Assembly: GCA_964429815.1 (NCBI GenBank)
Contig: CAYSCM010000001.1
Location: 384,001-448,000, forward strand
Reading direction: 5' to 3'
DNA: 64,000 nucleotides
Source: an uncultured Candidatus Saccharibacteria bacterium
GTDB taxonomy: Bacteria; Patescibacteriota; Minisyncoccia; Phycocordibacterales; CAYSCM01
The notes under the pieces are model-generated. The model was given only the letters and a program-made list of their open reading frames with translations, was not told the origin of the DNA and ran no database searches. Position numbers and translations under genes: made by a program. Below, piece after piece: positions 2,634 to 47,542 of this stretch (position 1 is the stretch's first letter; the number at the start of each line of letters is the position of its first letter).

Positions 2634-2672
2634 CAACAACTGCCTGCGATCGCGGGCAGTTGTTGTATTTGT
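2634..2672 (+). terminator. Rho-independent terminator after nrdJ
   Basis: Perfect hairpin caacaactgcc...ggcagttgttg followed by tatttgt. Confidence 0.6.
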
Positions 2673-2694
2673 AAAAAGATGGTATAGTATTCCC

Positions 2695-3155
2695 CGTGCA
2701 CCGGATAATCGCGCACCCCAAAGGAATTTGAGGAGGTGAGGAAAGTCCGAACACAGCCGAGCACCTGTAAGGTCGTAGTGCCGCAGGGATGCACTATTGC
2801 TTTACAGGTGCTCGGAGCAGGTAGCGTCCTAAGCTTTCGCTCTGCGAAAGCCGGATCCGACACTCGCAAGAGTGTTCAGGAGGTAACGCCCGTCCACCGT
2901 AAGGTGCGAGATGCGAACAGAAACGTCGATGCCGAAAGGCTAGAGTCCCCTCGGGGATTGTCTCGTCGAGAGGCGAGGATGAAACGGCTAAACTCTTACT
3001 TCTGTGCAAGGCCGCGTCGAGCACCTTTAAGGTTGTATTGGAGCAAGAATCAATATTGCTTTAAAGGTGCTCGAAGTGCCGCTTGAACCGCACAGCGATG
3101 TGTGGTCCAGATAAATGATTATCGTCCGCCACTGGCGGATACAGAATTCGGCTTA
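2695..3155 (+). ncRNA. rnpB: RNase P RNA (bacterial type A-like, about 460 nt, with extra or duplicated hairpins)
   Basis: 5' gaggaaagtccgaacacagc matches the conserved GGAAAGUCCGGGC P4 strand, and 3' acagaattcggcttacag matches ACAGAACCCGGCUUA. The GG>AA / CC>TT change is compensatory. P1 candidate pairs gtgcacc (2696) with ggtgcac (3146). No ORF. A terminator hairpin follows. Confidence 0.75.
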
Positions 3156-3176
3156 CAGGTGCACGCACAAATGATG

Positions 3177-3206
3177 AAGGCCCGCGAAAGCGGGCCTTTG
3201 TCGTTT
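3177..3206 (+). terminator. Rho-independent terminator after rnpB
   Basis: aggcccgc-gaaa-gcgggcct hairpin followed by a T-rich tract. Confidence 0.55.
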
Positions 3207-3283
3207 AACCACAGGAATGCCTGTGGGGGCAGGAACCGTCGAGGTATACTTCCTGTATTACTTTTTAAGAGTTAGAGAGATTT

Positions 3284-5587
3284 ATGAGCACGTCGCGATT
3301 GCCCACCTACCTTCTTCTTATAGGACTCCTTCTTTCTCCCCTCTTTTTCATTCCGTCTGTCACCATACCCTTCGTTTTTGCCAAGGTGCATGTGCTGACC
3401 CTCCTTAGCTCTCTGGCGTTTCTTATCGCCGTCGTCGTCGCACTGCGGCGGCGGGCGGTATCGCTTACGTTTCATCCTGTCCTTCTCGCGCTCTGGACGG
3501 TCGTCGCCGCGTACCTCGTCTCAGCCCTCCTTACCAAAGCGCCGATGCTCTCGCTGGTGGGAATGCGCTTCGACGTGGATACCGTGGCATTCATGGCGCT
3601 TGCGGCGTTTTCAGCGACGCTCTGCGCTCACCTTTTCTCGGAGCGGCGGCACTTGTCGCTTCTCCTGCGGGGAGCCGCCATCGTCGCCGCGCTCGGCGGC
3701 CTTTTTGTGGGCGCGAGGCTCCTTTTCGGAGTTGGGTTTTTGGGCTTCGGGTTTTTCACCGATAAAACGAGCAATTTCTTCGGCAGTTGGAACGACCTTG
3801 CTCTTCTCTCCGGACTCTCAGCGATTCTTTGCCTCAATGCACTTCGCTCCGCGACGCTCGTCGGAGCGAAAAAAGTCCTGGTTATCGTGGGACTCGTCGC
3901 TTCGATCTTCTTCCTCGCTATCACCAACTACTTCACGGCGCTCCTCGTCGTCGCGGTAGTCTCGGCGGCCTTCTTCCTTCTCGAGATGCTCTCTTCGATA
4001 CGCGCACGCTCGACGGCGTCACTCTTCCACCTTTTTCCGATTTTCGCCCTCCTCACCGCGCTCGTGGCGGGCCTCTTCGCTTTTGAGAGCGGTATCGGCG
4101 GGTCCTTGGCGACCTCGGTCGGCATCTCCCAGCTCGAGGCGCGACCCTCCTGGGTCACCACGTTTGACATCGGCAAGGCGACCCTTAACGCTAACCCGCT
4201 CTTTGGCTCCGGACCAAACACGTTCGTGCGGGATTGGCTTCTCAATAAGCCCGCCGAGGTCAACACGACGGCGTTCTGGGCCGCCGACTTCATTCAAGGT
4301 GTCGGCACTATCCCAACCGGCTTTATCACGACCGGCATCGTGGGCACTGCTTTCTACGCAATATTCCTTCTCCTCCTCGTTCTTGCGAGCGTCCAATTCT
4401 TTGTTCGCTCCGGTCAGGCCTCCGGCGGAAGCTTCTACAGCACCACCTTCGCCCTTGCCGCTCTCTATCTCGTGCTCTTCACGTTCCTCTATACCCCCTC
4501 ACCGATACTCGTTCTCAGCGCGTACGCTTCCGTCGGACTCTTCATCGCCGCGCTCATCGCCGAAGGCTTCTTGATGAAGCGGCAAATCTCCCTTGCGATG
4601 CCGACGTGGGGGAGCTATCTCATGCAGCTTGCCATGGCGCTTGCGATAATCACGACCGTCGCCTATCTCGGCGAGAGCGGTATGCGGTTCATCGCTGCAC
4701 TGCAAGCCGGTCAGGCCTCCGCGGACATACAAGCGGGCGACGTGGTGAACGCAAAGCGTCATAGCGCCTCCGCTCTCTCCTTGGCGCACGTCGACGAGTA
4801 TGAGCGACTTGCGGCTCTCGCGAATCTTGCGGCGCTTCGTGACCTGGTCAACAAGAAAAATCCAACCGACGAGAACAAGGCGCAGGCGCAGCAAGAGTTG
4901 TCTGAGGCCGTTGCCCATGTTACGGCGGCCGTAAACGACAATAGCCAGAACTACCAAAACTGGCTCGCGCTCGCGCAGGTTTACATAACCGTGCTGCCTC
5001 TCCAGGTCCAAGGCGCCTACGAAAATGCCAAAACGGCATTGGGGAAGGCGATCGAGCTTGCTCCCAAAAACCCGGACCTCGAGCTTGCGTTCGCCCAGCT
5101 CGAGCTCGGCCAAAACAATACCGTCGAGGGACGAAAGCACCTCACCAACTCCCTCTCGCTCAAAGGAAACTACACCGCGGCGATTTACCTCCTGGCGCAG
5201 CTTGATATAGCCGAGGGCAAGTCTGATGAAGCACTCCAGGCGCTCGCGGTCGCCCAACAACTCATCCCCAACGAACCCTCCGTCTACTTCATGGCGGGCT
5301 ACCTTTTCTACGCGCGAAACGACGACAAAAACGCCATAGGAGCGCTCAAAGAGGCCGTCGCACTCAACAAGGACTACGCCAATGCGCACTACTTCCTCGG
5401 TCTTGCTCTCGCCCGTTCGGGTGACAGTGCCGGCGCCATTGCAGAATTCGAAGGGCTTGCGGCAGGTAACCCTGACAACGCCGATGTCGCGGCGATACTT
5501 AAGAATCTAAAAGCGGGGAAGCCGCCCTTCGCCGCGCAGACTCAGAGGCCGACCAAGAACTCGCCGCTTCCCATCAAGGGTGAATAA
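3284..5587 (+). CDS. Polytopic membrane protein, O-antigen-ligase-like (Wzy_C-type) with C-terminal TPR repeats
   Basis: 767 aa. About 10 predicted TM helices in the N-terminal 450 aa. C-terminal region has repeated TPR-like helices (NYQNWLALAQVYIT..., AIYLLAQLDIAEG..., ANAHYFLGLALARSGD). Confidence 0.5.
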   Translation: MSTSRLPTYLLLIGLLLSPLFFIPSVTIPFVFAKVHVLTLLSSLAFLIAVVVALRRRAVSLTFHPVLLALWTVVAAYLVSALLTKAPMLSLVGMRFDVDTVAFMALAAFSATLCAHLFSERRHLSLLLRGAAIVAALGGLFVGARLLFGVGFLGFGFFTDKTSNFFGSWNDLALLSGLSAILCLNALRSATLVGAKKVLVIVGLVASIFFLAITNYFTALLVVAVVSAAFFLLEMLSSIRARSTASLFHLFPIFALLTALVAGLFAFESGIGGSLATSVGISQLEARPSWVTTFDIGKATLNANPLFGSGPNTFVRDWLLNKPAEVNTTAFWAADFIQGVGTIPTGFITTGIVGTAFYAIFLLLLVLASVQFFVRSGQASGGSFYSTTFALAALYLVLFTFLYTPSPILVLSAYASVGLFIAALIAEGFLMKRQISLAMPTWGSYLMQLAMALAIITTVAYLGESGMRFIAALQAGQASADIQAGDVVNAKRHSASALSLAHVDEYERLAALANLAALRDLVNKKNPTDENKAQAQQELSEAVAHVTAAVNDNSQNYQNWLALAQVYITVLPLQVQGAYENAKTALGKAIELAPKNPDLELAFAQLELGQNNTVEGRKHLTNSLSLKGNYTAAIYLLAQLDIAEGKSDEALQALAVAQQLIPNEPSVYFMAGYLFYARNDDKNAIGALKEAVALNKDYANAHYFLGLALARSGDSAGAIAEFEGLAAGNPDNADVAAILKNLKAGKPPFAAQTQRPTKNSPLPIKGE

Positions 5588-7291: not shown

Positions 7292-9085
7292 ATGGACGCT
7301 ATACGTAATTTTTCCATTATCGCTCACATTGACCACGGCAAGTCGACGCTCGCCGACCGCTTTTTGGAGCTGACCGGCACCATTGAAAAGCGGAAGATGA
7401 AAGACCAAGTGCTCGACTCAATGGAGCTTGAACGGGAGCGCGGCATTACGATAAAAATGCAGCCAGTGCGCATGCGACATAGCATTGGAAGCGCCGAATA
7501 CGTGCTCAATCTTATCGACACACCCGGGCATATCGATTTCTCCTACGAAGTCTCGCGCGCCCTTCGCGCCGTCGAAGGTGCGCTCCTCCTAGTCGACGCA
7601 ACCCAGGGCGTGCAGGCACAAACGCTCACCACGCTCGGAATGGCGCGTGAACAAGGGCTCGTCATCGTACCGGTCGTCTCGAAGATAGATTCCCCACTTG
7701 CACGTTCCGATGAAGTAAAGCTCGAGCTTGCGAACCTTCTTAGCGTCTCGCCGGAGGATGTGCTGGCCGTTTCCGGGCGCACGGGGGAAGGAGTGAGAGA
7801 GCTTCTCGACGCCATCGTCGCGCGCATTCCGCCGCCCAGGTGCAAATTCAGCGGCAAGGACGATTTTCGCGGCCTGGTGTTCGATTTCAAGTACAGCAAC
7901 CATCGGGGCATCATTGTGTACTTGCGTGTGTTCGATGGAGAAGTGGCGAGGAATACTCCGCTTATGTTCCGTGCGGCGAATCGGAGCTTTGTCGCTGCCG
8001 AGGTCGGTATTTTCACTCCGGAAGAGTTGCCAAAAGAGGAGCTCACGGCAGGGGAGATAGGCTACATCGTCACTGGCATCAAAGAGCCAGGTGTCGCCTC
8101 CGTCGGCGACACCCTTGCACGAAGCCCTTCAAAGGTTCCGACACTTCCCGGCTATTTGACTCCTGCACCGGTGGTGTGGGCTTCGGTGTATCCCGAGAGC
8201 CAAGACGATTTCGATTATTTACGACAGGCGCTCCTGCGACTGCGGCTCTCCGATTCCTCGCTCTCCTACGAGGAGGAATCATCGGGGAATCTTGGCAGGG
8301 GTTTCCGATGCGGATTTCTCGGCATGCTCCACCTCGAGATCGTGACTGAGCGCCTCAAGCGTGAATTTAATCTCTCTCTTGTTATTACGACACCGACCAT
8401 CGCTTATGAGGTTGAGACGTCCGATAAAAAAATACAGACCATTTATTCGCCGGCGCGCTTTCCCGCTGACGGACGGATAGCGCAGATCCGGGAACCGTGG
8501 GTCAAAGTGACGCTCTTTTGCCCGCCGGAGTACGTAAGTAATGTCATGCAGCTCCTCTACGACCACGAAGCGCAGCTCGGGGATTCGGAAACCTGGAGCG
8601 ACGGGCGCACCAAGATGACGGTACGGATGCCGATGCGTGAGCTCATGCGCAACTTCTTCGATAAGATAAAAAGCGTTTCCTCCGGCTTCGCCTCGCTCTC
8701 CTACGAGATAGAGGGGATGCGGATCGCGGACGTCGTGAAGCTCGAGATTCTCGTCGCGGAGGAAGTCATCCCCGCGTTCTCGCGCATCGTCTCACGTAGG
8801 AAAGTTGAGCACGAGGCGCAAGACGCGGTGGAGAAGCTCCACAAAGTGCTCCCGCGACAGCTTTTCGTCACCAAAATCCAGGGAAAGGCGATGGGGCGCA
8901 TCATCGCATCGCGGACCCTCTCAGCGCTGCGCAAGGACGTCACAGGATACCTCTACGGCGGCGATATCACCCGTAAGATGAAACTCCTTGAAAAACAGAA
9001 AAAGGGAAAGAAAAAAATGAAAGAACACGGCCGCGTAAACATCCCGCAGGACGTGTTTCTCAAAATGATCAAGCAAGAGGAGTAG
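7292..9085 (+). CDS. lepA: Elongation factor 4 (LepA)
   Basis: 597 aa. GTPase G1 [11 protein letters not shown], the DTPGHIDF motif, and the LepA-specific C-terminal domain. Confidence 0.9.
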   Translation: MDAIRNFSIIAHIDHGKSTLADRFLELTGTIEKRKMKDQVLDSMELERERGITIKMQPVRMRHSIGSAEYVLNLIDTPGHIDFSYEVSRALRAVEGALLLVDATQGVQAQTLTTLGMAREQGLVIVPVVSKIDSPLARSDEVKLELANLLSVSPEDVLAVSGRTGEGVRELLDAIVARIPPPRCKFSGKDDFRGLVFDFKYSNHRGIIVYLRVFDGEVARNTPLMFRAANRSFVAAEVGIFTPEELPKEELTAGEIGYIVTGIKEPGVASVGDTLARSPSKVPTLPGYLTPAPVVWASVYPESQDDFDYLRQALLRLRLSDSSLSYEEESSGNLGRGFRCGFLGMLHLEIVTERLKREFNLSLVITTPTIAYEVETSDKKIQTIYSPARFPADGRIAQIREPWVKVTLFCPPEYVSNVMQLLYDHEAQLGDSETWSDGRTKMTVRMPMRELMRNFFDKIKSVSSGFASLSYEIEGMRIADVVKLEILVAEEVIPAFSRIVSRRKVEHEAQDAVEKLHKVLPRQLFVTKIQGKAMGRIIASRTLSALRKDVTGYLYGGDITRKMKLLEKQKKGKKKMKEHGRVNIPQDVFLKMIKQEE

Positions 9086-9091
9086 TTTCCT

Positions 9092-9196
9092 AGCGGAATG
9101 CCGGGAAGTAGAGGAGCACCATCGAGACGATGATGATTACCGAGAGGGTGATCCAGATCGCCTTGAAAGCCGCTTTCGTACGCTTGTCGAACATGA
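9092..9196 (-). CDS. Possible small hydrophobic protein (34 aa)
   Basis: Minus-strand ATG at 9196, MFDKRTKAAFKAIWITLSVIIIVSMVLLYFPAFR, with a single TM segment. It lies between lepA and ftsB-like and is too short for the ORF track. Confidence 0.25.
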
Positions 9197-9212
9197 TGGT
9201 AGACTAGCACAT

Positions 9213-9590
9213 ATGTTGCGTCCCCGTGAAGTAAGCCCTTGGAAGAAGCTCCTCTTCAGCTACCCGACGCTCTTTCTTCTCATCCTCCTCGTGGCACTTC
9301 TCTTCCGCTCGGTGTATCTCGCGTATCTTCGGGAGCGGGCAACAGCGAAGCTCCTTTCCGAGCGTCGCAACGAATTAAACCAGGTCGAAACGCGGGTAGC
9401 TGCGGTCGCGGAGAGGGTCAGGCAACTCAACACACCACGCGGGGTCGAGGAGGAGGTGCGCTCGCGTTTCCAGGTTGCAAAGCCGGGCGAGAAAGTTATA
9501 GTCATCGTTGACCAAGATGCAACGTCTACGGCCGCTTCAGCCGACACAGCTCGGTTCTGGTCGCGGGTAAAAAAGTTTTTTGGTTTCTAA
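9213..9590 (+). CDS. Septum formation initiator family protein (FtsB/DivIC-like)
   Basis: 125 aa. N-terminal TM followed by a coiled-coil (AKLLSERRNELNQVETRVAAVAERVRQL...). Size and architecture fit FtsB/DivIC. Confidence 0.6.
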   Translation: MLRPREVSPWKKLLFSYPTLFLLILLVALLFRSVYLAYLRERATAKLLSERRNELNQVETRVAAVAERVRQLNTPRGVEEEVRSRFQVAKPGEKVIVIVDQDATSTAASADTARFWSRVKKFFGF

Positions 9591-10493: not shown

Positions 10494-10566
10494 GCCGAGG
10501 TAGCTCAGTTGGTAGAGCATTTGTCTGAAGAACAAAGGGTCGCCGGTTCGATCCCGGCCCTCGGCA
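10494..10566 (+). tRNA. tRNA-Phe (anticodon GAA)
   Basis: gccgagg-ta-gctcagttggtagagc-a-tttgt-ctGAAga-acaaa-gggtc-gccgg-ttcgatc-ccggc-cctcggc-a. Canonical D and T arms. Confidence 0.9.
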
Positions 10567-10736
10567 CAAAATTGAAATTGCCTGGACTGGCTCCAGGCAA
10601 TTTCAACTTCTGATGAGGGATCGAACCTGGAAGGGGTCGGGAAACGGGAGTTTCCCGTCGAGGAAAACAGCGAGCTTGCGAGCGTTAGAAACCGCGGGTT
10701 TCTAAAGAGCTGCGCAGCAGCTCAGGAGTGAGATTC

Positions 10737-10761
10737 CCGGCCCTCGGCACAAAATTATGGG
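10737..10761. repeat. Direct repeat of the tRNA-Phe 3' end (second copy; first copy 10550-10573)
   Basis: gattcccggccctcggcacaaaatt versus tRNA 3' gatcccggccctcggcacaaaatt. 21 nt are identical, and 163 bp separate the copies. Confidence 0.8.
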
Positions 10762-12384: not shown

Positions 12385-14595
12385 CTATGCCTCATCTCTC
12401 GTTGCCGACACGGCTTCTTCCGTGCCCGGCCAGCGCTCCATCATGAGAAGCTCTCCGGAGCCACCGGGTAGCAGCGAGTGAATCTCTTCGGTAATAAAAG
12501 GCATGAAGGGGTGGAGAAGTTTGAGGAGTTTGGTCAGTATCTGGTAGAGCGCCCACGACCGTGCGCTCTTATGCTGAGAGGCGCCCTCTTTGAGGATGGA
12601 CTTGCTTTCTTCGAGTATAACATCAGCGAGCGTATGCCACGTGTAGTGGTAGAGCTTTTCAGCGGCAAGGTAGAGGCGGTACCCCTCGATGTCGGCCGTC
12701 ACGTCCTGCGCGAGATCTTCGAGCTGTCGGAGGTACGAAGCCTCCGCCGCAGAGAGCTCGGGAACCTCCTCGCCAAGCACCCCTTCTTGGAGATTTTCGA
12801 GAACGAAGCGGCTGATGTTCCAGAGCTTGTTTGCGAAGTGCTTATAGCCCTTTATTTTGTCCTCGGAAAGTTTTATGTCCGTCCCAGGCGCTGCGCCAAC
12901 GACAAGGGAAAGGCGCGTCGCATCGGCACCATATTTTTCTATCATCTCCACCGGGTCGATGATATTGCCGAGTGACTTACTCATCTTTTTTCCGTTTTTG
13001 TCGCGCACGAGCCCATGGAGGTACACAGCCCTGAAGGGTATCTGTCCCATGTGAAAGCCGGCCATAAGCACCATGCGTGCGACCCAGAAAAAGAGTATGT
13101 CGTAGCCGGTCTCGAGCACCGAGGTCGGGTGGTAGAGCTTGAGATCCTCCGTTCCCTTCGGCCAGCCGAGCGTTGAAAAGGTCCACAGTCCCGAGGAGAA
13201 CCAGGTGTCGAGGGTGTCTGGGTCCTGTTCCCATCCCGCTCCCTCGGGAGCCGAGACCCCCACGTAGCGCTCAGAATCGCGGTACCAGACAGGGATGCGG
13301 TGGCCGAACCATATCTGGCGGGAAATGCACCAAGGGCGCAGGTTGTCTATCCAGTGGAAGTAGGTTTTACCGAAGTACTCCGGAAGGATGGAGATAGCGC
13401 CCTGCGCGACGGCAGTGCGCATAAGTTCTTTGAGCGAGAGTTCAGCTCCCGACCCGATGCCGAAGATCTGTGAGTGCACGATGCGGAAAGGTTTATCGAC
13501 ATCGACGAACCACTGTTCCTTTATCTGCGGTTCAATGATGCCGCCGCCGCGGCTATTAGTCGCGACATTGTGAACGTAACCCTCGTCGACCTTTTCGAGG
13601 AGTCCCTTCTCCTTCAGCTTCTCGACTATTTTTGGACGTGCTTTTTTTATGTGGAGCCCTGCGAATTCTCCCGCGAGGCGAAGAAGCTTCCCCTTTTCAT
13701 CGATGATTTGCTCCTTATCGAGCTTGTGGCGCTCGGCTATCTCAAAGTCGATGAGGTCATGCCACGGAGTGATGGTCATGACACCGGTACCAAATTCCAT
13801 CGAGGCGGCGGCATCCTTGATGATGGTCGCCGTCACCGGGCCGTTTATCCATTCGAGCTCGAGCGTATCGCCGTGGCGGTAGTTCGCATAACGAGCATCG
13901 TCAGGATGCATTACAACGTACTTATCACCGAATTTAGTTTCGGGACGCGCGGTCGTGATGGTGAAGGGGCCGTACTTAAGATGGTAGAGCGGCTCCTTTT
14001 TCTCCACCCACTCGATCTCGTCATCGGAAACGGTCGTCTGAAATTCAGGATCCCAATTGACGATGCGTGCTCCGCGGAAAATGAGCCCAGCCTCGTACAT
14101 CCGCACGAACGCTTCCATGACGGCCCGGTAACGCTTCTCGTCCATGGTGTAGGCATAGCGGCTCCAATCGAGTGAGCTTCCCATACGGCGAAGCTGCGCG
14201 ATGATGGTCGCCTTACTCTCCTCAGTGAACTCATCGATACGCCGCAGAAGCTCCTCGCGACCGATGTCGTGGCGGGTTTTCTTCTCCTTCTTGTACACCA
14301 TGTCCTCTACCTTCGACTGCGTCGCGATGGCCGCTGAGTCCGTGCCGGGTACCCAGAGCGTTTTAAAACCCCGCATGCGCTTGTAGCGGATGAGGATATC
14401 CTCGATGGCGAGCATCGCCGCGTGTCCCATGTGGAGGGTGCCGGTGACGTTGGGAGGGGGAAGGACTATTGAGTACGGCTCCTTGTGGCTCTTGGGGAGA
14501 TTGTCAGGGTTGAAGTAGCCCGAATCCTCCCATTTTTTATAGATTTCAGGCTCCGTTTCCTTGGGGTTGTAGGGCTTAAGGAATTTCTGGTTCAC
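12385..14595 (-). CDS. valS: Valine--tRNA ligase (short form)
   Basis: 736 aa. PPPNVTGTLHMGHA (HIGH) and KMSKSLGN (KMSKS) motifs, with class I editing-domain-like regions. It is shorter than typical ValRS and lacks the C-terminal coiled-coil. Confidence 0.85.
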   Translation of the reverse strand: MNQKFLKPYNPKETEPEIYKKWEDSGYFNPDNLPKSHKEPYSIVLPPPNVTGTLHMGHAAMLAIEDILIRYKRMRGFKTLWVPGTDSAAIATQSKVEDMVYKKEKKTRHDIGREELLRRIDEFTEESKATIIAQLRRMGSSLDWSRYAYTMDEKRYRAVMEAFVRMYEAGLIFRGARIVNWDPEFQTTVSDDEIEWVEKKEPLYHLKYGPFTITTARPETKFGDKYVVMHPDDARYANYRHGDTLELEWINGPVTATIIKDAAASMEFGTGVMTITPWHDLIDFEIAERHKLDKEQIIDEKGKLLRLAGEFAGLHIKKARPKIVEKLKEKGLLEKVDEGYVHNVATNSRGGGIIEPQIKEQWFVDVDKPFRIVHSQIFGIGSGAELSLKELMRTAVAQGAISILPEYFGKTYFHWIDNLRPWCISRQIWFGHRIPVWYRDSERYVGVSAPEGAGWEQDPDTLDTWFSSGLWTFSTLGWPKGTEDLKLYHPTSVLETGYDILFFWVARMVLMAGFHMGQIPFRAVYLHGLVRDKNGKKMSKSLGNIIDPVEMIEKYGADATRLSLVVGAAPGTDIKLSEDKIKGYKHFANKLWNISRFVLENLQEGVLGEEVPELSAAEASYLRQLEDLAQDVTADIEGYRLYLAAEKLYHYTWHTLADVILEESKSILKEGASQHKSARSWALYQILTKLLKLLHPFMPFITEEIHSLLPGGSGELLMMERWPGTEEAVSATRDEA

Positions 14596-16192: not shown

Positions 16193-16620
16193 AATGCTTC
16201 GTTGGAGATCTTCTTTTGCAACCAACAATCAATAACCCGTTTGCTTGAGGTAAACATTGGGGAGGGGAGATTCTTCGGGTCGACCCATTTCCAGTTCCTG
16301 CTTTTTTCCGGTTCAGCATCATATGGTTCGCCTTTTTCTGACTCAGCGAGAATTCCAATGGTGACGTAGTGCTTGTTTTTCGCAGGGTAAAAAATAATAT
16401 CGTTGTTGACGCAAATAATCCCTTTTATTCGAATATCTTTGAGTCCGGTTTCTTCTTGAACCTCCTGCCGAGCGCAATCGGCAAAGGATTGTTCAAATTC
16501 TAAATGGCCTCCAGGTATTTGGAATGTTCCTGCTCCGCCGGACTTAGATAGGCGCTCCCCAATGAGGATGGTATTGCCTCGAGTTATCAAAATTCCGATG
16601 CCGATGTATGGTCGATCCAT
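16189..16620 (-). CDS. NUDIX hydrolase
   Basis: 143 aa with a Nudix box (GGHLEFEQSFADCARQEVQEETG). Confidence 0.75.
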   Translation of the reverse strand: MDRPYIGIGILITRGNTILIGERLSKSGGAGTFQIPGGHLEFEQSFADCARQEVQEETGLKDIRIKGIICVNNDIIFYPAKNKHYVTIGILAESEKGEPYDAEPEKSRNWKWVDPKNLPSPMFTSSKRVIDCWLQKKISNEAL

Positions 16621-16621
16621 G

Positions 16622-16640
16622 GTGCGCGGTAAGGGACTCG
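16622..16640. repeat. Direct repeat of the tRNA-Val 3' end (copy; tRNA copy at 16820-16838)
   Basis: 19-nt exact repeat gtgcgcggtaagggactcg, lying 179 bp downstream (in tRNA orientation) of the tRNA-Val 3' end. Confidence 0.8.
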
Positions 16641-16820
16641 GTCACGAATAATCTACTCGTCGTCGCTCGCAGATTTTCGCGACCCCGGCTCGGTATCAAA
16701 AGCTGCTGCTTTTGATATACCTGCGCCCTTCGAGTCCCTTATGGAAGCGACACTGGTCGCTTCCTCCCGCGCAACAACGAAATTAAAAAACGATGGCAGA
16801 AGCCATATTTTTTAATTTAG

Positions 16821-16893
16821 TGCGCGGTAAGGGACTCGAACCCCTGGCCCTTCCCACGTCAAGGGAATGCTCTACCAACTGAGCTAACCGCGC
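16821..16893 (-). tRNA. tRNA-Val (anticodon GAC)
   Basis: Reverse complement reads gcgcggt-ta-gctcagttggtagagc-a-ttccc-ttGACgt-gggaa...aggggttcgagtccctt-accgcgc-a. Confidence 0.85.
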
Positions 16894-16952
16894 ATGAGAG
16901 ACTTCGGCATTCTAGCAAAAAGTTGCCGTTTTACCACCGCTAGGGTCGCACG

Positions 16953-17171
16953 CTACGATCGCTTTTTGGCAAAAAAAAGCAGATACAAAATTTCCAGAAC
17001 ACCGATGGAATTAACGAGGAGAAGGGCAACGAACCACACCGGTTGATTGTTGCGGCCGGCTCTCCAGAGCGCGAGCCCCTTCCAGACGATGGCCCAGAGG
17101 ATGAGGGCAACAAAAGCGATCATGTGCGTGAGAACCCAGCCGACGAAAAGCCCGAATGATGCGTAAGTCAT
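16953..17171 (-). CDS. Small membrane protein (two TM helices)
   Basis: 72 aa and very hydrophobic (FGLFVGWVLTHMIAFVALILWAIVW ... VWFVALLLVNSIGVLEILYLLFF). Confidence 0.5.
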   Translation of the reverse strand: MTYASFGLFVGWVLTHMIAFVALILWAIVWKGLALWRAGRNNQPVWFVALLLVNSIGVLEILYLLFFAKKRS

Positions 17172-17193
17172 AGAGATAGTGTAGCAGATTTCG

Positions 17194-17267
17194 GCGACCC
17201 TACCGGGATTCGAACCCGGGTTACCGCCGTGAGAGGGCGGTGTCCTAGACCACTAGACGATAGGGCC
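17194..17267 (-). tRNA. tRNA-Glu (anticodon CTC)
   Basis: Reverse complement reads ggcccta-tcgtctagtggtctaggac-a-ccgcc-ctCTCac-ggcgg-taac-ccggg-ttcgaat-cccgg-tagggtc-g. Confidence 0.8.
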
Positions 17268-17575
17268 TCGCTTCGCTCGGCCATGCCGCCGTCGCTCGTT
17301 CGGAAATGAAGGTGCACTTTCATTTCCCTCACTTCGCTAGACGATGGGGCCAAACACGGCGATTCTAGCATTTTCTCCTCCAAATGCTAGGATGACGTGC
17401 GTAGTTTATCAAACGGAGAGGTGGCTGAGTGGAGAAATCGCGAATAGCTTCGCGATTTCTCCGATCCGCGAAGCGGACGTGCCGATGTGAGCGAGCCTAC
17501 CGGCGAGCGAGAAGGCACGAGGTGGACGAACTTGTTCGACCCTCAGCTTCCATTTAGTATGGGCGAAGCCCATAT

Positions 17576-17662
17576 GGAGAGGTGGCTGAGTGGTCGAAAG
17601 CGGCGCCGTGCTAAGGCGTTAGGGGCGAAAGTCTCTCGTGGGTTCGAATCCCACCCTCTCCG
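17576..17662 (+). tRNA. tRNA-Ser (anticodon GCT), class II tRNA with a long variable arm
   Basis: ggagagg-tg-gctgagtggtcgaaagc-g-gcgcc-gtGCTaa-ggcgt, long variable arm, T-arm gtggg-ttcgaat-cccac, acceptor cctctcc-g. Confidence 0.85.
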
Positions 17663-17715
17663 CAAATGTTGCCTATAGGGACAGAACAATCTCGATTTCC
17701 TGTTATACTTTCGTT

Positions 17716-18441
17716 ATGGCGAACCTTGAAGGAGGACCCAATTCGAACGTCGAAAAAGAAAAGAAAATCCGAGAAGCAGAACAAGAGCTTGATTCAATCG
17801 ATCTGAATCCGGACAAACTTCGCCCTCTCTCGCCTGATGAGATCCACAGTCTTCATAGTAACCTCGCCGATCTTCTCTACTCAGCAGAAACAACTAGAAC
17901 GTTAGCTGACTTACCGGACTCTCCCGAAATTCGAGGGATCAGTGGGGAAGAACAAACCCGAATTGCGATTCAGAAACTCCATGAACGCGGTCAAGAGCTT
18001 CTTAAGAAGACCATTGACGACGAACGACTCCGTGCCGACCTGACTGAAAAAATTAGAGAGTATCATCGCTCAAACTGGCGTGAGGCTTTTGCGAATGAAA
18101 TCACCCAAGGACGAACGCCTTTCGGCGATGCGAGTAACTCGATTATTGAATTTTACCGAACCAAGGGGATCAATATTGAGAATCCGACGGAAGAGGACAT
18201 TGATAAGTATTTTGAGCGAAAAGAATACGACGCTGCAGCATTTGGCCTTGAATTTAAACGCCGACGTCGAAAACAGTTTGCGGATATGGATAACCAGAAG
18301 TTTTCCGATTTTCAAAGTTTATTTTGGCGGATGTTTAGGGTGCCTGATGGGCATGGATGGTTCACAACCCTTATGAACGGCAAGGCGTTTGTGCAGAAGC
18401 TCGACGAAATCAACGAAGCTCTGAAGCATAAAACTCCATAG
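17716..18441 (+). CDS. Hypothetical protein (island cargo)
   Basis: Start moved to MANLEGGPNS. The track's earlier start overlaps the tRNA-Ser 3' end. Charged and coiled-coil rich, with no known motif. Confidence 0.45.
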   Translation: MANLEGGPNSNVEKEKKIREAEQELDSIDLNPDKLRPLSPDEIHSLHSNLADLLYSAETTRTLADLPDSPEIRGISGEEQTRIAIQKLHERGQELLKKTIDDERLRADLTEKIREYHRSNWREAFANEITQGRTPFGDASNSIIEFYRTKGINIENPTEEDIDKYFERKEYDAAAFGLEFKRRRRKQFADMDNQKFSDFQSLFWRMFRVPDGHGWFTTLMNGKAFVQKLDEINEALKHKTP

Positions 18442-18773
18442 GGGCATAGGAGACTGTGTTTATTTATGCCAACACGATACCACTTTTTCTTTTTCTAGCC
18501 TGTATGGCCGATTTCCACGCCATGCAAAAGACAGATCTCTTTGATACACTCTAATCGCTCCATGAAGATTGGATCGCGTAGCTGTATCCGGGTTCGAACA
18601 TCGTTCAGGCCTGCCCGCTCGGACCGGTAAATGTCCAGATAGGTCAATTTTGAAAAAGAGCCTTATGAAATGGGCCTCTTTTTCGTCTCCCAAATTCGCC
18701 AAAAAGGTTCGAATCCTAACCAGTCTCTGCTTCCTCACCTTGGTGATGTATATTTAGGCCATCATTTTAATCT

Positions 18774-19427
18774 ATGGTGCCAACCGAGATTATCCTGGCT
18801 AGTGTAAGTTCTCCTTTTGAAATTGGCGCACAAATCGCCGAGATTATTATTGCGGCAGGGACAATTGTGGGGCTCGGGTTTTCGATATGGTTTTCGCGAA
18901 GAACTCTGCAACGATCGGATTGGAATTCAATAATGACTACCGCTCCCAGCATTGCGATCGAGTGTCGTAGTGATGGATTTTGGTTGAATGATAGGCCAAC
19001 TGCCGGAGGTTCTTGGGGAGAGCCCACACGCCATCTCGAACCTTCAGGAAAGTACGTCACCTTCGCGTTGAGATTTAGAATCTCAAATCAGGGGAGGGGT
19101 CTAGCACTTGCTATTAAGCCCGAAGTTTCTTGTAAGGCGAAAGCTTGGGTGGGAGGGATTCAGAATTTCCCTGTTTGGATGGGCACCGACAATGAGGACA
19201 AATCAGATCTTGCTGTTGACATACAGGAAGAGGACTTCAAATGGCTCGAACTGATGAAAAATCCTTTGCATTTGGCGCTGAGCATTAGCTACAAAAATGA
19301 CCAGGGCAACATTGCTTGCACCTCTAGGTGGTCGGCTAACCTGCAACCGTTTACAGTTAATGGAACTCGTCTTGAAATATGCCGGGACCGAATCCAAGAG
19401 CCTAGTATGCAAATTACTTATAGTTGA
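18774..19427 (+). CDS. Hypothetical membrane-anchored protein (island cargo), translationally coupled to the HNH gene
   Basis: 217 aa. N-terminal TM (IAEIIIAAGTIVGLGFSIWF). Its stop TGA overlaps the TTG start of the downstream gene (agTTGA). Confidence 0.5.
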   Translation: MVPTEIILASVSSPFEIGAQIAEIIIAAGTIVGLGFSIWFSRRTLQRSDWNSIMTTAPSIAIECRSDGFWLNDRPTAGGSWGEPTRHLEPSGKYVTFALRFRISNQGRGLALAIKPEVSCKAKAWVGGIQNFPVWMGTDNEDKSDLAVDIQEEDFKWLELMKNPLHLALSISYKNDQGNIACTSRWSANLQPFTVNGTRLEICRDRIQEPSMQITYS

Positions 19428-20107
19428 CTCGAAAAACTGTGAAATTCGAACTCAAAAAAATCAGAAGAAACACCCCAGATGACGAACTTCTTAGTGATCT
19501 GAAAACTACAGCAACAAAGTTAGGACAGCAATTTGTCACGAGGGCTCAGCAGGACCAATTTGGAAAATTTGATAGCTCGAACATGTCGAGGCGACTAGGG
19601 GGATGGGCAAAAGCTCATGAGCGTGCTGGTCTTAGGCTTGCACGTCATCAAAAGAGTCTGAAAGCTTCAGAAAACGAACTATTGCAAAATTTGGAAGAGG
19701 TTTGGACAAGGCTAGGACGACAACCGAATAGTCAGGATATGTTTGCTCCTATCTCACGCTTTGGCGTGAGTGCGTATAAACGCCACTTCGGCAGTTGGAT
19801 GAAAGCTCTCGAGAAGTTTGTTTCGATCGCAAATTTTGAGGGTGCTTTGACAAATGGATCGGATGAGGAGACTGTTGTTTCTGGGTCAAAGCGTAGGACA
19901 AAGCGAGAAGTCAATTGGAAGACGCGCTTTCTTGTAATGCGTCGGGATAATTTCAAATGCAAAAGTTGTGGACGGTCACCGGCTACGGACGCTGGAACTA
20001 TTCTCAATGTGGATCACATAAAGGCCTGGGCGAATGGGGGTGAAACTGTCCTAGACAATCTACAGACCCTATGTGCGGTCTGTAATCTGGGCAAAAGCAA
20101 TCTATAA
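19424..20107 (+). CDS. HNH endonuclease with N-terminal homing-endonuclease-associated repeats
   Basis: C-terminal HNH motif CKSCG...VDHIKAWANGGETVLDNLQTLCAVCNLGK. N-terminal repeats of the FGxxxxxxxRLGGWxxAxxxAGL type. Confidence 0.75.
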   Translation: MTRKTVKFELKKIRRNTPDDELLSDLKTTATKLGQQFVTRAQQDQFGKFDSSNMSRRLGGWAKAHERAGLRLARHQKSLKASENELLQNLEEVWTRLGRQPNSQDMFAPISRFGVSAYKRHFGSWMKALEKFVSIANFEGALTNGSDEETVVSGSKRRTKREVNWKTRFLVMRRDNFKCKSCGRSPATDAGTILNVDHIKAWANGGETVLDNLQTLCAVCNLGKSNL

Positions 20108-20199
20108 GGCATCCGGCGGCAACCCCATTCCTTCCTGTTTCAATATCCAGCGGATTTCCTCGCTCAATAATCACTCCTAGACAATCACACACGTTTTGG

Positions 20200-20517
20200 T
20201 TGTATGTGCTCAGAAGTACATTTGGCCATGCAAGGGAGTGTCTGCTAATGAGCATGAAACCTACCCGCATAACTTTTGAAAATCCAAAATACGGCAAGGT
20301 TGAGTGGACTTTGCCCGAACACGTTGAAACAGCGCTCGCCGCCAATGCTTCATCAAGTGCTGAGATGGAGGAGGCGGTGAAATTCTTAGCACGAACAACA
20401 GCCAAAGTGTTCGGCACGATTGTCTATTGCTTCACTCTAGGCAAATTGCCTGACCTCGACGCTTTCCTTGGTCAATTCGCGGAAAAAGGCGAAGCGAAGC
20501 CACCACCCTCTCACTGA
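20200..20517 (+). CDS. Hypothetical protein (island cargo)
   Basis: 105-aa ORF, with a likely start at ATG 20248 (MSMKPTRITFENPKYGKVEW...). A bidirectional terminator follows. Confidence 0.4.
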   Translation: MYVLRSTFGHARECLLMSMKPTRITFENPKYGKVEWTLPEHVETALAANASSSAEMEEAVKFLARTTAKVFGTIVYCFTLGKLPDLDAFLGQFAEKGEAKPPPSH

Positions 20518-20555
20518 GACTTTCAGGACGTACCCTAGCGGTACGTCCCTTCTTT

Positions 20556-20732
20556 TTAGTCAGACAGCTCCTTACCGTCTCGTCGGATTTCTTCCCGCAC
20601 CCACTCTCGAAGCCTCGCCTTTCTAACGGCTTCCTTTTCCAGTTTTCGCATCTCCTTCTCACTCTTGTCCGGCCAGTCAATTTTCACACCCTGGCGAGCG
20701 CAAACACGTTTGATAAGATGAAAGCGCTCCAT
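20556..20732 (-). CDS. Small basic protein (58 aa, possible DNA-binding)
   Basis: The 133-aa track ORF reads through the attR repeat. Only the C-terminal part from MERFHLIKRVCARQGVKIDWPDKSEKEMRKLEKEAVRKARLREWVREEIRRDGKELSD (Met codon at 20730-20732) is plausible. A truncated paralog (MERLECIKEICLLHGVEIGHTG*) with a conserved upstream leader lies at about 18480-18546. Confidence 0.4.
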   Translation of the reverse strand: MERFHLIKRVCARQGVKIDWPDKSEKEMRKLEKEAVRKARLREWVREEIRRDGKELSD

Positions 20733-21025
20733 GAACGATGGCTCGCGTAGCCATAGCCGGGTTCGAACGTCGTTCAGGCCTGCCCGCAACGGTTTGTAAG
20801 AATGCTCCGGTGGAGCATTCACGCAAAGCGTCGGATTTGTCGTGAGGTGGGATTCGAAAGGCGGAGCCCGACAAACGCAAAGCGTTTGTTTCGGGCGAGC
20901 CCGGGCAGGAGCCACTTTCCGCCGGAGGCGGATTAGTGAGCTGACGCCGAATCCCACCCTCTCCGCAGAAAGAAACTTCCGATTCGGACAGACCCGAGTA
21001 CTTCGGGAGTTAGTATAATGAATGT

Positions 21026-21331
21026 ATGAGGAGATATGTTTCCGGTGGCGTTGCGCATAAGCTACCGGCAGATTTACGGAGGGCTCTATCGTCTGATTCT
21101 AAAGCTCTGGCGGCTTGGGAAGATGTTACGCCACTTTCCCGCAACGAGTGGATTTGTTGGACTGTCTCCGTTAAAACTCCCAAGAAGAGGAGGGAGCATG
21201 TCGACAGGGTCATATCGGAACTAAAGGAAGGGATGCGACGCCCTTGCTGTTGGTACGGCTGCGTTCACCGGAAGGATAAGCCGCTAAACCCTTCGCAGAA
21301 GCTTGTACTCAGTAGAAAAGCGAGAAAATGA
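21026..21331 (+). CDS. YdeI/OmpD-associated family protein (DUF1801-like)
   Basis: LPADLRRALSSDSKALAAWEDVTPLSRNEWICWTVSVKTPKKRREHVDRVISELKEG matches the conserved pattern of that family. Confidence 0.5.
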   Translation: MRRYVSGGVAHKLPADLRRALSSDSKALAAWEDVTPLSRNEWICWTVSVKTPKKRREHVDRVISELKEGMRRPCCWYGCVHRKDKPLNPSQKLVLSRKARK

Positions 21332-21630
21332 GACGCGTCCACAAGAAACGCTGGATTGTCTTATTTGTCTTATTTCCAAAAATTACCCCAGCGACCCGAG
21401 AGCCTCAACAAATTGCCTTCGAAAGCGCTAGAATATCCTTATGGGGATTGACTGAGGTTCTCTGAATCCCGAGTGGTCCGCCCCCAGATTGGCAGCCTAG
21501 AATCGCGGGAAAATGAGGAGATTTTTGGTAAAATAAAGACAGGTTTTCGAAGCATAGCGGTCTTGCCTTATTTTATTCACAAAATTCACAGAAGATTTCC
21601 CCGGCTGCAGTGCCATAATTTACCCATATC

Positions 21631-46187: not shown

Positions 46188-46263
46188 TTAGCCTCCTGTT
46201 TCTTGTTCCTGCCCGACTCTAGCAGGAAGCATTCTTTTTTCAATAGTGCCGGGGGTGGGGGTC

Positions 46264-46339
46264 GGCACATCCGGCTTCCAAAATGCCGAACACGGCGCCT
46301 GCCCGTCCGAAGCTTTAGCGAAGGAGGGAGGCCGCTTCG
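46264..46339. repeat. 76-bp inverted repeat, left copy (partner 47543-47619)
   Basis: cggcacatccggcttccaaaatgccgaacacggcgcctgcccgtccgaagctttagcgaaggagggaggccgcttcg is the reverse complement of 47543-47619, with one mismatch. Confidence 0.85.
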
Positions 46340-46470
46340 TTGACAATATAAAATTTTTCTTTGGCGGACTAATTCGAGAATGCGCGGAGCGTATACAATA
46401 TTGTTCTTTGAAAAAATAAAGAGCGCCCCATCGCTGGAGCGCTCTGTGTCGAGTTGAACGGCGCGAGCCG

Positions 46471-46810
46471 CTACTTGTCGGACTTTTCGGCCCCTTGCAG
46501 CTTGCAGTCGGCGTAGGCCCAGACGTAGCGGGTGCAGGTGAATGCGCCGGGTTTCTGGAGATATGCCGAGATGAACTTCGGCTCCTTGGTCTCGTCCTCC
46601 TTGCCGCCGCAGTCGAGCTTCATCACCACTTTGGTATTGGTGGCATCGTAGGATTTCGCGGTGCAGATCGCGTCACGAGCGACGACGGTATTGCTGACGA
46701 TAGCCGCGTGGACGCCCCACTGAATGCCACCGCTGACGGCGATGACGATGCCGAAGCCGAACAGCTGCTTCCACGTCATGACGAAGTTGCCGACGAATCG
46801 GTTCCTCATG
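46471..46810 (-). CDS. Hypothetical signal-anchored Cys-containing small protein (island cargo)
   Basis: Start at MRNRFVGNFVMTWKQLFGFGIVIAVSG (TM/signal). 4 Cys in the mature part. Its own terminator lies at about 46426-46455. Confidence 0.45.
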
Positions 46811-47310
46811 ACACCGCTCCCTGTGCTTGGTGGTTGAAGGTGATGATCGGGCAGACCTTCTGCTTGGCCGCCACGATGTATTGCCACACGACCTGCCAGA
46901 AGCCGGGACCCGTCGGCGCCGGAGCGGCGACCTTGGGCGGTTCCTTCTTCTTTTCAGGCTTGGGCGCGGGAGAAGGTTGCCGCCCCCACTCCTTCAGCCG
47001 TCGGAACAGCGCCTTCAGACCGATGATAACGCCGACGACGATTGCGAGTGCGCCGACGACATACGCATAGCCGGTGCCGCCCCAGAAGTAGATGGGTAGC
47101 GCCGTCAGTGCGGCGACACCCGAGCCGTACACCACTGCGTTGAGCAGCAGCACGAGCGGGCACCAGACCAGCATAACGCGCAGGAAATGGCACAAGTTTG
47201 TGCCGTCCCGATAGTGCCACGAGTCGTCGCCGCGGTCCTTGAACTCGTCCCAGACCGTCAAAGACCAGAAGAACCAACGGACGTACCACTGGCGTTTGTC
47301 CAACTCCATG
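46806..47310 (-). CDS. Hypothetical membrane protein (island cargo)
   Basis: Start at MELDKRQWY. 2-3 TM helices. Lys/Pro-rich tail (PSPAPKPEKKKEPPKVAAPAPTGP). Confidence 0.45.
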
Positions 47311-47542
47311 ATGTTTCTCCCCTTGAAAATTGGCCAAAACAAGCCAAGGATTGTGTACCACTTCCAAGCATCAGTGTCAAGTTGTGGCGAACTGTCGCAC
47401 CGAAAGAGTGTTTAGTAGCTAATCGTTCTGTATGCCAAAAAGTTTTCTTTTTCCTGACATAGATTCAGAGCGGGCTTCGCCCGCACCGAGTGAGAATGGT
47501 TTGCACCGATGTTTTTCTCCGGGCTCTTTTGCGGTTTTCGAG

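Follow-up and report, generated by a model that had tools for sequence, protein, structure and literature searches.

The tRNA-Ser(GCT) gene in a 64-kb stretch of contig CAYSCM010000001.1 (positions 384,001 to 448,000), which comes from an uncultured Candidatus Saccharibacteria bacterium and is hereafter called the window, is followed by a low-GC island of about 3.3 kb that is bounded by two exact copies of the last 20 nt of the tRNA gene. Our best explanation, which we hold with moderate confidence, is that this island is a cargo-carrying copy of a family of trans-mobilised insertion elements without genes of their own, which have the T-loop of Paceibacterota tRNA genes as their target. The island in itself is ordinary, and the interesting part is the family that it revealed. 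Members of this family have a conserved structure, are linked to tRNA 3' ends, are insertion-like and encode no recombinase. They are widespread in the Paceibacterota (Patescibacteria), where they accompany tRNAs of nearly every isotype, and the family is apparently undescribed; no description of such tRNA-end modules was found in the literature searches made.

The duplicated end of tRNA-Ser belongs to a three-way-junction module

The features that define the element lie at the two ends of the island (coordinates are those of the window):

17576-17663, plus strand: intact tRNA-Ser(GCT) (ARAGORN; Rfam RF00005, 57.2 bits)
17645-17664, plus strand: tRNA-proximal copy of the 20-nt repeat, from the T-loop CGAAT to the 3' end (exact match)
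20789-20831, plus strand: hairpin GAATGCTCC-GGT-GGAGCATTC before the module (inverted-repeat search; a similar hairpin precedes the tRNA-Ser(GCT) module of locus L226)
20846-20858, plus strand: inverted arm, the 5' strand of helix P1, complementary at every position to tRNA-Ser in its T-loop and T-stem 3' strand (in the fold it pairs with 20948-20960)
20859-20947, plus strand: module core, with P2 at 20860-20901 (a hairpin with a G/A-rich internal loop) and P3 at 20904-20945 (folding)
20948-20967, plus strand: distal copy of the 20-nt repeat, the 3' strand of P1 and a single-stranded acceptor tail (exact match)

The sequence CGAATCCCACCCTCTCCGCA occurs at exactly two sites in the window, 17645-17664 and 20948-20967, and still at two when three mismatches are allowed. 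The chance expectation is 0.01 matches, and two copies were reached in 0 of 100 shuffles. This bears out the original prediction, made from the letters alone, that the last 20 nt of tRNA-Ser recur at 20948-20967. It also disposes of the possibility that the 20-mer is a dispersed motif, but repeats of this type are recurrent at the tRNA genes of the clade. The repeat runs from the start of the T-loop (TT|CGAAT) through the 3' strand of the T-stem and the 3' strand of the acceptor stem to the discriminator and CA, and it is supported as a real duplication of the tRNA 3' end, of the type made by site-specific insertion into the T-loop. The inverted piece GGTGGGATTCGAA at 20846-20858 is a perfect 13-nt complement of 17643-17655. 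Its presence had been recognised in the original prediction, where it was taken for a degraded fragment of the T-arm; the piece is intact, and rather than being debris it forms one arm of the closing helix of a conserved structured module.

This module of approximately 115 nt folds into the three helices P1, P2 and P3, with -38.5 kcal/mol as DNA (z = -5.6) and -67.7 kcal/mol as RNA (z = -5.4), and its core ends in TGACGC directly before the junction. It is matched over its full length (20846-20960) by R1, a covariance model built from the type-1 alignment described below, with 36.5 bits and E = 2.5e-8. Using blastn, we found that 20842-20917 is 79% identical to 9176-9248 of the related locus L046, and that 20896-20955 is 82% identical to 7329-7389 of the same locus. 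The window copy and the two L046 copies differ by compensatory changes, for instance CACT/AGTG against CACC/GGTG in P3, and the stems of P2 are wholly different yet paired; all three copies end in CTGACGC|CG. Rfam gave no match other than to tRNAs at E<=5 for 16400-21400 of the window, and none at E<=10 for 7700-9800 of L081.

The syntenic site in L046, a divergent Ser/Glu pair beside TsaD, consists of tRNA-Ser(CGA), a 53-nt spacer and a homologous module, and has no cargo. In the window 3183 nt separate tRNA-Ser from the module, so that strand and cognate tRNA are as in the rest of the family and the distance falls outside the family's 13-90 nt. Since the module normally lies about 50 nt behind its tRNA without cargo, and since the L046 homologue is cargo-free, we regard the 3.3 kb as cargo in one copy. 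The earlier reading of the 20-bp repeat as the footprint of this 3.3-kb island did not hold up: the duplication is the signature of a miniature gene-less family whose module is normally cargo-free. Long spacers are also found in L068, with 1890 nt behind tRNA-Glu (one 514-aa orphan), and in L226, with ~1.1 kb behind tRNA-Ser(GCT). At the L226 site (2641-3960: tRNA-Ser(GCT), 1.1 kb, type-1 module) terminal inverted repeats of ~30 bp flank the extra DNA, and a separate transposon has thus landed in the spacer. Unlike at L226, no convincing terminal inverted repeats were found around the window cargo.

Related modules follow tRNA genes in relatives and metagenomes

We compared the window with 84 fetched loci (80 loci from the genomes of relatives and four contigs of the same strain, cited here by L numbers), which together with the window contain 295 tRNAs. 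Copies of tRNA 3' ends were found only downstream of the tRNA, mostly 105-195 nt off, and copies of 5' ends only upstream; the opposite arrangement occurred at 0 of the 295 tRNAs. For four of the 13 window tRNAs the 3' end recurs downstream of the gene, with a spacer of 166 nt for Phe, 181 nt for Val, 3286 nt for Ser and ~1.55 kb for Leu(taa). The spacers are built alike: behind the tRNA stands a terminator-like hairpin, then come the T-loop and T-stem 3' strand in inverted form (8-14 nt, ending in TCGAA), a conserved core, and finally the tRNA 3' end again in direct orientation. In sequence, the inverted arm corresponds to the Watson-Crick complement of the 3' strand and is not a copy of the 5' strand of the T-stem; in the window Val module it reads AAGGG, versus AGGGG in the 5' strand of the tRNA.

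Nine cores, which we call type 1, were aligned as GCCGGAG-hairpin-GAGGCGGGGTCGC-long hairpin-GTGAC|CGA. When this alignment is laid on a three-way junction, 86.6% of the cells are paired, versus 32-44% with the partners slid. Both sides have changed in 18 of 32 pairs, and the observed covariation values were reached in 0 of 500 shuffles; RNAalifold was run on the type-1 cores alongside these pairing counts. The six junction-proximal pairs of P3 are invariant or nearly so, including an invariant G.T wobble whose reading is confined to the tRNA-sense strand; in the distal stems the pairs covary.

Searching 1.27 Mb of related genomes (80 genomes) with R1 gave 48 matches, and 24 of the best 41 start 13-90 nt behind a tRNA on the same strand. 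The orientation of the module is always that of the tRNA. A metagenome collection scanned with the exact type-1 core pattern yielded at least 120 loci. Among the matches listed, 80 of 121 modules have a same-strand tRNA no more than 400 nt upstream, with 15 isotypes represented, the median distance from tRNA end to core is 70 nt, and 36 cores are followed by 18-21 nt identical to the tRNA from the T-loop CGA onwards. The remaining metagenome matches are a few chance ones in GC-rich genes and others with a degenerate or uncalled tRNA or in a 5'-end context. A phage origin of the module was considered and set aside, the pattern scan of IMG/VR having given only chance matches in GC-rich coding DNA.

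Filled and empty sites point to insertion

At a locus formed by tRNA-Gly(CCC) and a glutaredoxin gene, the tRNA stands directly before the promoter and gene in L023, L009 and L033. The same locus in L030 has an identical tRNA end, then ~170 nt made up of terminator, inverted arm and core, a displaced fragment CGGTTCTCCCATTCCGCAC, and the same promoter and gene. In addition, a module with the core subtype of the window lies at the 3' end of ftsZ in L046 (7168-7420), with a 36-nt direct repeat and without the 14-nt inverted T-arm piece. The 36-nt repeat encodes the last 12 codons of ftsZ (...VPAFLRRSKLK*), which is thereby restored, and the junction at ftsZ, GC|CGGTTCCC, is similar to the one at tRNAs, TT|CGAATCCC. 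For an element to bring along the 3' end of its target is the hallmark of site-specific integration. The orthologous filled and empty sites and the ftsZ copy together show that family members are insertions restoring their target.

For the island itself, three of the three same-strain contigs (Logan SRR12313480 and SRR12313482) with the right-flank protein carry it. Contigs L001-L004 of the same strain begin or end inside tRNA-Ser (~17576-17662) and run through the distal repeat; these breaks could reflect tRNA sequence common to co-occurring species, rather than an empty-site variant. DUF5652, TsaD and the arrangement of the tRNAs in the window indicate a member of the Patescibacteria. The closest TsaD relatives among 185,579 species genomes are metagenome-assembled genomes of Paceibacterota and Kaiserbacteria with <=63% identity. 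At that distance (TsaD <=63%) the comparison for an empty tRNA-Ser site met with flanking genes that are not conserved and with only short non-coding similarities.

The closest genome pairs (L027/L061, 89%; L035/L042, 86%) have no bona fide modules at their tRNAs, and the polymorphic insertion found there is an unrelated transposable element of the miniature inverted-repeat type (MITE). This palindromic, multi-copy MITE has the terminal inverted repeats CCCCGCGAGGGnTATGCGGCAGAAAG and lies at 516-632, 13592-13804 and 16044-16181 of L061 and at 405-598 and 16350-16564 of L027. It is filled at 16044-16181 of L061 and empty at 18795-18803 of L027, the two genomes being 89% identical. Its R1 scores are 34-42 bits, and R1 alone is therefore not specific.

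No recombinase is encoded in or near the island

The open reading frames (ORFs) of the island have no recombinase match in Pfam (also at E<=10), PHROGs or PADLOC, and no recombinase was found within ~10 kb on either side (precomputed Pfam) or among ten further window ORFs of 250-430 aa. These searches, together with Foldseek for ORF2, agree with the original prediction that the island has no tyrosine or serine recombinase. As none is encoded in the island or near it, any mobilisation must be in trans, and the suggestion of mobilisation in trans is supported insofar as no recombinase is encoded in the DNA searched. The accompanying idea that the element has lost its integrase is not supported, because more than 100 family members carry neither genes nor integrase remnants. 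One candidate remnant, a minus-strand frame over the internal 79-nt repeat of the island that bears a loose likeness to the C-terminal box II of a tyrosine recombinase, was rejected, having no match in Pfam (E<=10) or PDB and no homologue among 5.8e9 proteins. The other cargo-bearing copies (L068, L226 and L246) have no obvious recombinase ORFs, as judged by size and inspection of the sequence.

The island is foreign in composition and carries accessory genes

The GC content of 17700-20520 is 46.3%, compared with 55.1% for the window. This is the lowest value of 612 sliding 2.82-kb windows, 3.4 standard deviations under the mean, and the tetranucleotide distance of the segment is effectively the largest in the window. 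The GC and k-mer profile along the window confirms that the interior is AT-richer than the flanks, and the DNA between the repeats is supported as foreign by composition. The interior contains the following features:

17716-18441, plus strand: ORF1, 241 aa, predicted to be all-helical, with no Pfam, PHROG or PADLOC match
18540-18618, plus strand: copy A of an internal direct repeat, 79 nt, 82% identical to 20709-20787
18706-18730, plus strand: degenerate third tRNA-Ser-like 3' end, GGTTCGAATCCTAACCAGTCTCTGC (sequence match)
18774-19427, plus strand: ORF2, 217 aa, an N-terminal membrane helix and a beta-sandwich (AlphaFold, pLDDT 82)
19439-20107, plus strand: HNH endonuclease with two homing-endonuclease-associated repeats (Pfam PF18780, 1.3e-20, and PF01844, 1.5e-11; PHROG HNH families)
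20248-20517, plus strand: ORF4, 89 aa, with no family match (Pfam, PHROG, PADLOC)
20526-20548, plus strand: terminator-like hairpin behind ORF4 (terminator scan)
20556-20732, minus strand: small basic ORF, 58 aa, its frame open up to 20957

The ORF list and the Pfam and PHROGs searches thus recover the content originally described, namely hypothetical proteins, an HNH endonuclease and a small basic protein. ORF1 has ~10 distant homologues with 30-38% identity (1.84e9 representatives searched); its AlphaFold model is of low confidence (pLDDT 46) and not usable, and the context of one homologue, on two contigs, has no tRNA linkage. For ORF2 there are eight homologues with 33-58% identity, in unrelated contexts, and Foldseek against PDB gave only weak beta-sandwich matches (E > 0.004) and no recombinase fold. 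One ORF2 homologue, 48% identical, adjoins a large serine recombinase (Resolvase, Recombinase, Zn_ribbon_recom; L326 2148-3736, L327 2164-3866), and genes of the ORF2 family thus travel with other mobile elements elsewhere. The 58-aa ORF has no homologue among 5.8e9 proteins, no Pfam match at E<=10 and no sequence match in PDB, and it may not be a gene. With regard to defence content, PADLOC gave only generic HNH matches. None of the island proteins is present in the 80 related loci, and the cargo genes are accessory. We had also considered them as a conserved backbone of the element and dropped this, the homologues of ORF1 and ORF2 lying in unrelated contexts without tRNAs or convincing modules; one weak R1 match (28 bits, in L329) in the survey of ORF2 and ORF1 homologues is inside the score range of unrelated MITEs.

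The degenerate copy at 18706-18730 matches the tRNA-Ser 3' end at ~19 of 24 positions, with a 2-nt gap, and is the sole occurrence of GGTTCGAATCC outside tRNAs in the window. The two copies of the 79-nt repeat each precede a hairpin, and copy B (20709-20787) comprises the 5' part of the 58-aa ORF and the region upstream of it. Because of this degenerate third tRNA-Ser 3' end and the 79-nt direct repeat, the island probably consists of two tandemly accreted units, 17665-18730 with ORF1 and 18731-20947 with ORF2, the HNH gene, ORF4 and the module.

Other module sites and the history of the tRNA-Ser locus

Three further 3'-end sites in the window differ in their make-up. The Val module, on the minus strand at 16622-16838 (tRNA-Val 16820-16893), is complete and cargo-free and scores 62 bits with R1 at 16628-16741. 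Its 19-nt copy of the tRNA 3' end is exact, at 16622-16640, and abuts the start codon of a Nudix gene; the inverted arm TAAGGGACTCGAA lies at 16729-16741. At the Phe site (10568-10757; tRNA-Phe 10494-10567), the 3' end TCCCGGCCCTCGGCAC is repeated with 6-7 nt of flank 166 nt downstream, and the hairpin-rich spacer with the inverted GGGATCGAACC belongs to a divergent subtype that R1 misses. Behind tRNA-Leu(taa), on the minus strand (46246-47893), an exact 19-nt copy of the 3' end lies 1.55 kb downstream at 46246-46264. Here an 88-nt inverted repeat (46252-46339 and 47543-47630, 93%) brackets 1.2 kb with two ORFs, and a weak R1 match at 47704-47780 is oppositely oriented. The site may be a second one with cargo, of different architecture.

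The first 15-18 nt of tRNA-Ser and tRNA-Glu of the window are copied upstream of these genes, as fragments at 17415-17432 (plus strand) and 17337-17351 (minus strand). Upstream of tRNA-Ser they form part of a 5'-end module with the following features:

17415-17432, plus strand: copy of tRNA-Ser nt 1-18, the outer arm of the 5'-end module (exact 18-nt repeat of 17576-17593, 143 nt upstream)
17433-17575, plus strand: body of the 5'-end module, with a hairpin at 17433-17460, further hairpins, an inverted D-arm copy CCTCAGC at 17541-17547 and ~28 nt before the tRNA (sequence reading; 5' modules of relatives)

The same 5' architecture is found upstream of tRNA-Ser in L012, L050 and L081, and 17413-17665 of the window is 69.5% identical to L012 over 256 nt. 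Mirror-image 5' modules in L012, L046, L050, L060, L081 and L084 consist of a copy of tRNA nt 1-18 (1-39 in some Glu cases), a hairpin, CCGR, further hairpins, an inverted 5' copy, ~30 nt and the intact tRNA. Some Glu 5' modules, those of L029, L288 and L290, contain the type-1 core known from the 3' modules. In the window, the pair of 5' fragments face each other at a distance of 65 nt, like the ancestral divergent Ser/Glu pair.

In the window, the syntenic divergent pair beside TsaD is formed by tRNA-Glu(CTC) (17193-17267) and tRNA-Ser(GCT) (17576-17663), and in more than 50 relatives by Glu(TTC) and Ser(CGA). The acceptor, D, variable and T arms of the window tRNA-Ser are those of the CGA type of relatives (L028, L010), and the anticodon arm alone differs, which suggests a swap of the anticodon arm. 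Two short flanking similarities are of uncertain weight: ~33 nt after the distal repeat (GAAAGAAACTTCCGATTCGGACAG, 20968-21000) resemble the L023 sequence behind a degenerate Ser fragment, and ~35 nt after tRNA-Ser (17665-17700) weakly resemble the native leader and start of a DedA-like gene behind tRNA-Ser(CGA) in L010, L012 and L019.

A proposed mechanism and its alternatives

In its minimal form the element is 125-215 bp long. It starts with a duplicate of the tRNA segment that runs from the T-loop CGA to the 3' end, by which the gene is restored; a hairpin of the intrinsic-terminator kind follows, then the T-loop and T-stem 3' strand in inverted form, and last the two-hairpin core, which abuts the displaced original tRNA 3' end. 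At the window site, the proximal repeat copy (17645-17664) would be element-borne and would restore tRNA-Ser, as filled and empty sites elsewhere suggest, and the distal copy (20948-20967) would be the original tRNA-Ser 3' end displaced by the insertion; the stretch from the restored tRNA-Ser to the module contains ~3.1 kb of low-GC accessory genes. Pairing of the inverted arm with the tRNA end, be it the displaced or the element-borne one, folds the right end into a three-way junction. Each target has a P1 made to match it, and the junction TT|CGA lies exactly where the 3' strand of P3 runs into the 3' strand of P1.

A site-specific recombinase encoded elsewhere in the host would act in trans and cut at TT|CGA, presumably recognising the invariant base of P3 to one side of this point and the T-arm duplex to the other side. 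Its substrate would be the folded top strand, a duplex mimic of the tRNA T-arm. The invariant G.T wobble and the base of P3 by the junction, together with the covarying distal stems, fit a protein site on the folded top strand. If a circular or single-stranded form of the element were opened where the core meets its own tRNA copy, and joined into the tRNA at TT|CGA, this would give exactly the order observed. This folded single-strand attachment-site mechanism is the reading that we prefer, and our comparative analysis allows us to put it forward only tentatively. With similar caution, the modules could represent an undescribed class of miniature elements, with a three-way-junction attachment site that would be retargetable to any tRNA (and to ftsZ) via the inverted arm, and that would drag kilobases of genes into streamlined genomes without integrases, plasmids or prophages. 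If the whole 3.3 kb moved as a unit, it would leave the empty site ...GTGGGTTCGAATCCCACCCTCTCCGCAGAAAGAAACTTCC and the circle junction ...GATTAGTGAGCTGACGC|CGAATCCCACCCTCTCCGCAAATGTTGCCTATAGG. A cargo-free form would read tRNA-Ser and then GGTGGGATTCGAAAGGCGGAG within ~60 nt, and would point to cargo added to a resident mini-element.

The island might instead be a classical tRNA island, a relic like a cis-mobilisable element (CIME) that had its own tyrosine integrase and later lost it by deletion together with the transfer genes, the inverted piece and hairpins being leftovers of attP arms. An exact 20-bp repeat that starts in the T-loop would suit such an origin, the T-loop being a known crossover position of tRNA-targeting tyrosine integrases, and so would the foreign composition. 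The degenerate tRNA 3' copy at 18706-18730 fits CIME-type accretion (PMC5704250), and partial tRNAs scattered in islands are known from tycheposons (bioRxiv 10.1101/2020.12.28.424599). We nevertheless consider this history distinctly improbable. No integrase remnant was found at any sensitivity (Pfam, PHROGs, PDB sequences, 5.8e9 proteins), the syntenic tRNA-Ser in L046 has a cargo-free homologous module, and random decay would not give the same repeat, inverted arm and core at more than 100 cargo-free tRNAs with a uniform 125-215 bp and covarying stems. A chance match or dispersed motif, with the AT-rich region an ancestral variable intergenic or accessory segment, is refuted. The T-loop motif GGTTCGAATCC is indeed common to several tRNAs, and the 3' ends of Ser(GCT) and Ser(CGA) are identical in relatives, but the 20-mer has two copies in 64 kb where 0.01 are expected, the repeat is embedded in a conserved module beside DNA of extreme composition, and the island genes are absent from 80 of the 80 related loci.

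Strong covariation, an orientation that is always that of the tRNA, a conserved G.U wobble readable solely on the tRNA-sense strand and a stable RNA fold (-67.7 kcal/mol, z = -5.4) would all be expected if the module were a host gene for a non-coding RNA behind tRNAs, with a closing helix that mimics or pairs with the T-arm and a repeat kept by selection on the RNA. The 3.1 kb would then be an unrelated insertion, brought in by HNH homing, transposition or illegitimate recombination, and the independent transposon in the corresponding spacer of L226 marks this spacer as a permissive landing site. Such an RNA gene sits poorly with the position of the module behind an intrinsic terminator in most copies, with the lack of a visible conserved promoter or a matching Rfam family, and with the patchy distribution of modules among orthologous tRNAs. 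Moreover, the acceptor-strand tail decays where the core persists (L069, L046), and the same core occurs beside the 36-nt duplication of the ftsZ 3' end and in 5'-end contexts, so that we judge this explanation unlikely.

Several observations weigh against the view of the island as a cargo-carrying copy of a mobile family and against the mechanism proposed for it. No recombinase candidate is known, the search having covered 64 kb of the 501.7-kb contig, and there is no sign of a single-strand replication gene. Neither an excised form nor an empty tRNA-Ser site nor a cargo-free variant of the strain was found in the Logan contigs of the two runs, and the filled and empty sites compared are those of different species, not strains (TsaD <=63%). 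R1 also scores unrelated MITEs at 30-45 bits, and the membership of the window module in the family therefore rests mainly on its similarity to L046 and on its architecture. The covariation fits a functional RNA equally well as folded DNA, and the P2/P3 core has no counterpart in CTX attP or in attC sites. The cargo may have arrived with the element or later; the L226 cargo is a separate transposon with terminal inverted repeats, and the window island has no such repeats.

Patescibacteria have tiny genomes with few recognisable mobile elements, which raises the question of how they gain accessory genes. If a gene-less family occupied a sizeable minority of their tRNA genes, this would explain the many partial tRNA fragments, which are also a source of annotation errors, as well as the landing sites of cargo such as the HNH island and the way in which a recombinase encoded elsewhere could move cargo. 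A candidate for a new structured nucleic-acid motif, not in Rfam, is the conserved core of ~65 nt. If the folded-strand mechanism were true, single-strand site-specific recombination, as in integrons and Xer-exploiting phages, would extend to tRNA targets, and the attachment site would be a naturally programmable one.

Comparison with known systems

A close parallel to an element without a recombinase of its own is the CTX phage, a Xer-exploiting integrative mobile element (IMEX): its attP(+) contains two inverted sites 90 bp apart that fold when single-stranded, and host XerCD carries out the integration, with no integrase from the phage (PMC4246890). Like the CTX-phi IMEX, with its two inverse, target-like copies ~90 nt apart that pair within one strand (PMC4246890), the window element has arms at 20846-20858 and 20948-20960, 89 nt apart, which both lie at one end after integration. 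In the family's geometry, the inverted arm and the direct copy of the target are separated by about 70-90 nt. The targets differ, as the window element is directed at a tRNA T-loop and not at dif. CTX-type IMEX use a dif target with XerC/XerD arms flanking a central region of 6-8 bp; the window element lacks these, its arms being tRNA sequence in which no XerC/XerD-type 11-bp arms were identified. Moreover, its intervening sequence is a conserved, covarying two-hairpin core and not a spacer, it has neither phage genes nor a gene for rolling-circle replication, empty elements measure 125-215 bp, and recombination of the single strand is in our case an inference.

With the attC sites of integrons, which are recognised as a folded single strand, the module shares a structured site, ends that are inverse complements and a fold that is conserved over sequence. 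Integron cassettes are also similar in that promoterless cargo lies at the site and the recombinase is encoded elsewhere. Unlike attC, the module has no RYYYAAC/GTTRRRY core sites and its arms are copies of the local tRNA, and unlike cassettes, which form arrays beside an intI/attI platform, the modules stand each at its own tRNA gene.

CIMEs and tRNA islands have attL and attR from the tRNA 3' end, lack integration and transfer genes and undergo tandem accretion (PMC5704250), all of which recalls the window island. CIMEs are heterogeneous decay products of ICEs (integrative and conjugative elements) or IMEs (integrative and mobilisable elements) and have no conserved structured end, whereas here the gene-less form is uniform, conserved and the commonest. 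Remnants of ICE or IME decay (int, relaxase, conjugation genes or an intact relative) were not found for the window island. The tycheposons of Prochlorococcus are likewise cargo islands beside tRNAs in streamlined genomes, with full and partial tRNAs at their flanks, and in tandem insertion the older ones are displaced outward (bioRxiv 10.1101/2020.12.28.424599). In contrast to the window island, which has none of these traits, tycheposons bring their own recombinase, of the tyrosine or serine type, frequently have genes for replication as well, and measure 10-20 kb.

Finally, the modules resemble MITEs in being small, gene-less, structured, present in many copies and presumably mobilised in trans. 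In MITEs the terminal inverted repeat is specific to the element, whereas that of the module matches each target tRNA. In addition, insertion of the module duplicates 16-36 nt of the 3' end of the target and restores the gene, which is typical of site-specific recombination and not of the short duplications made by transposases.

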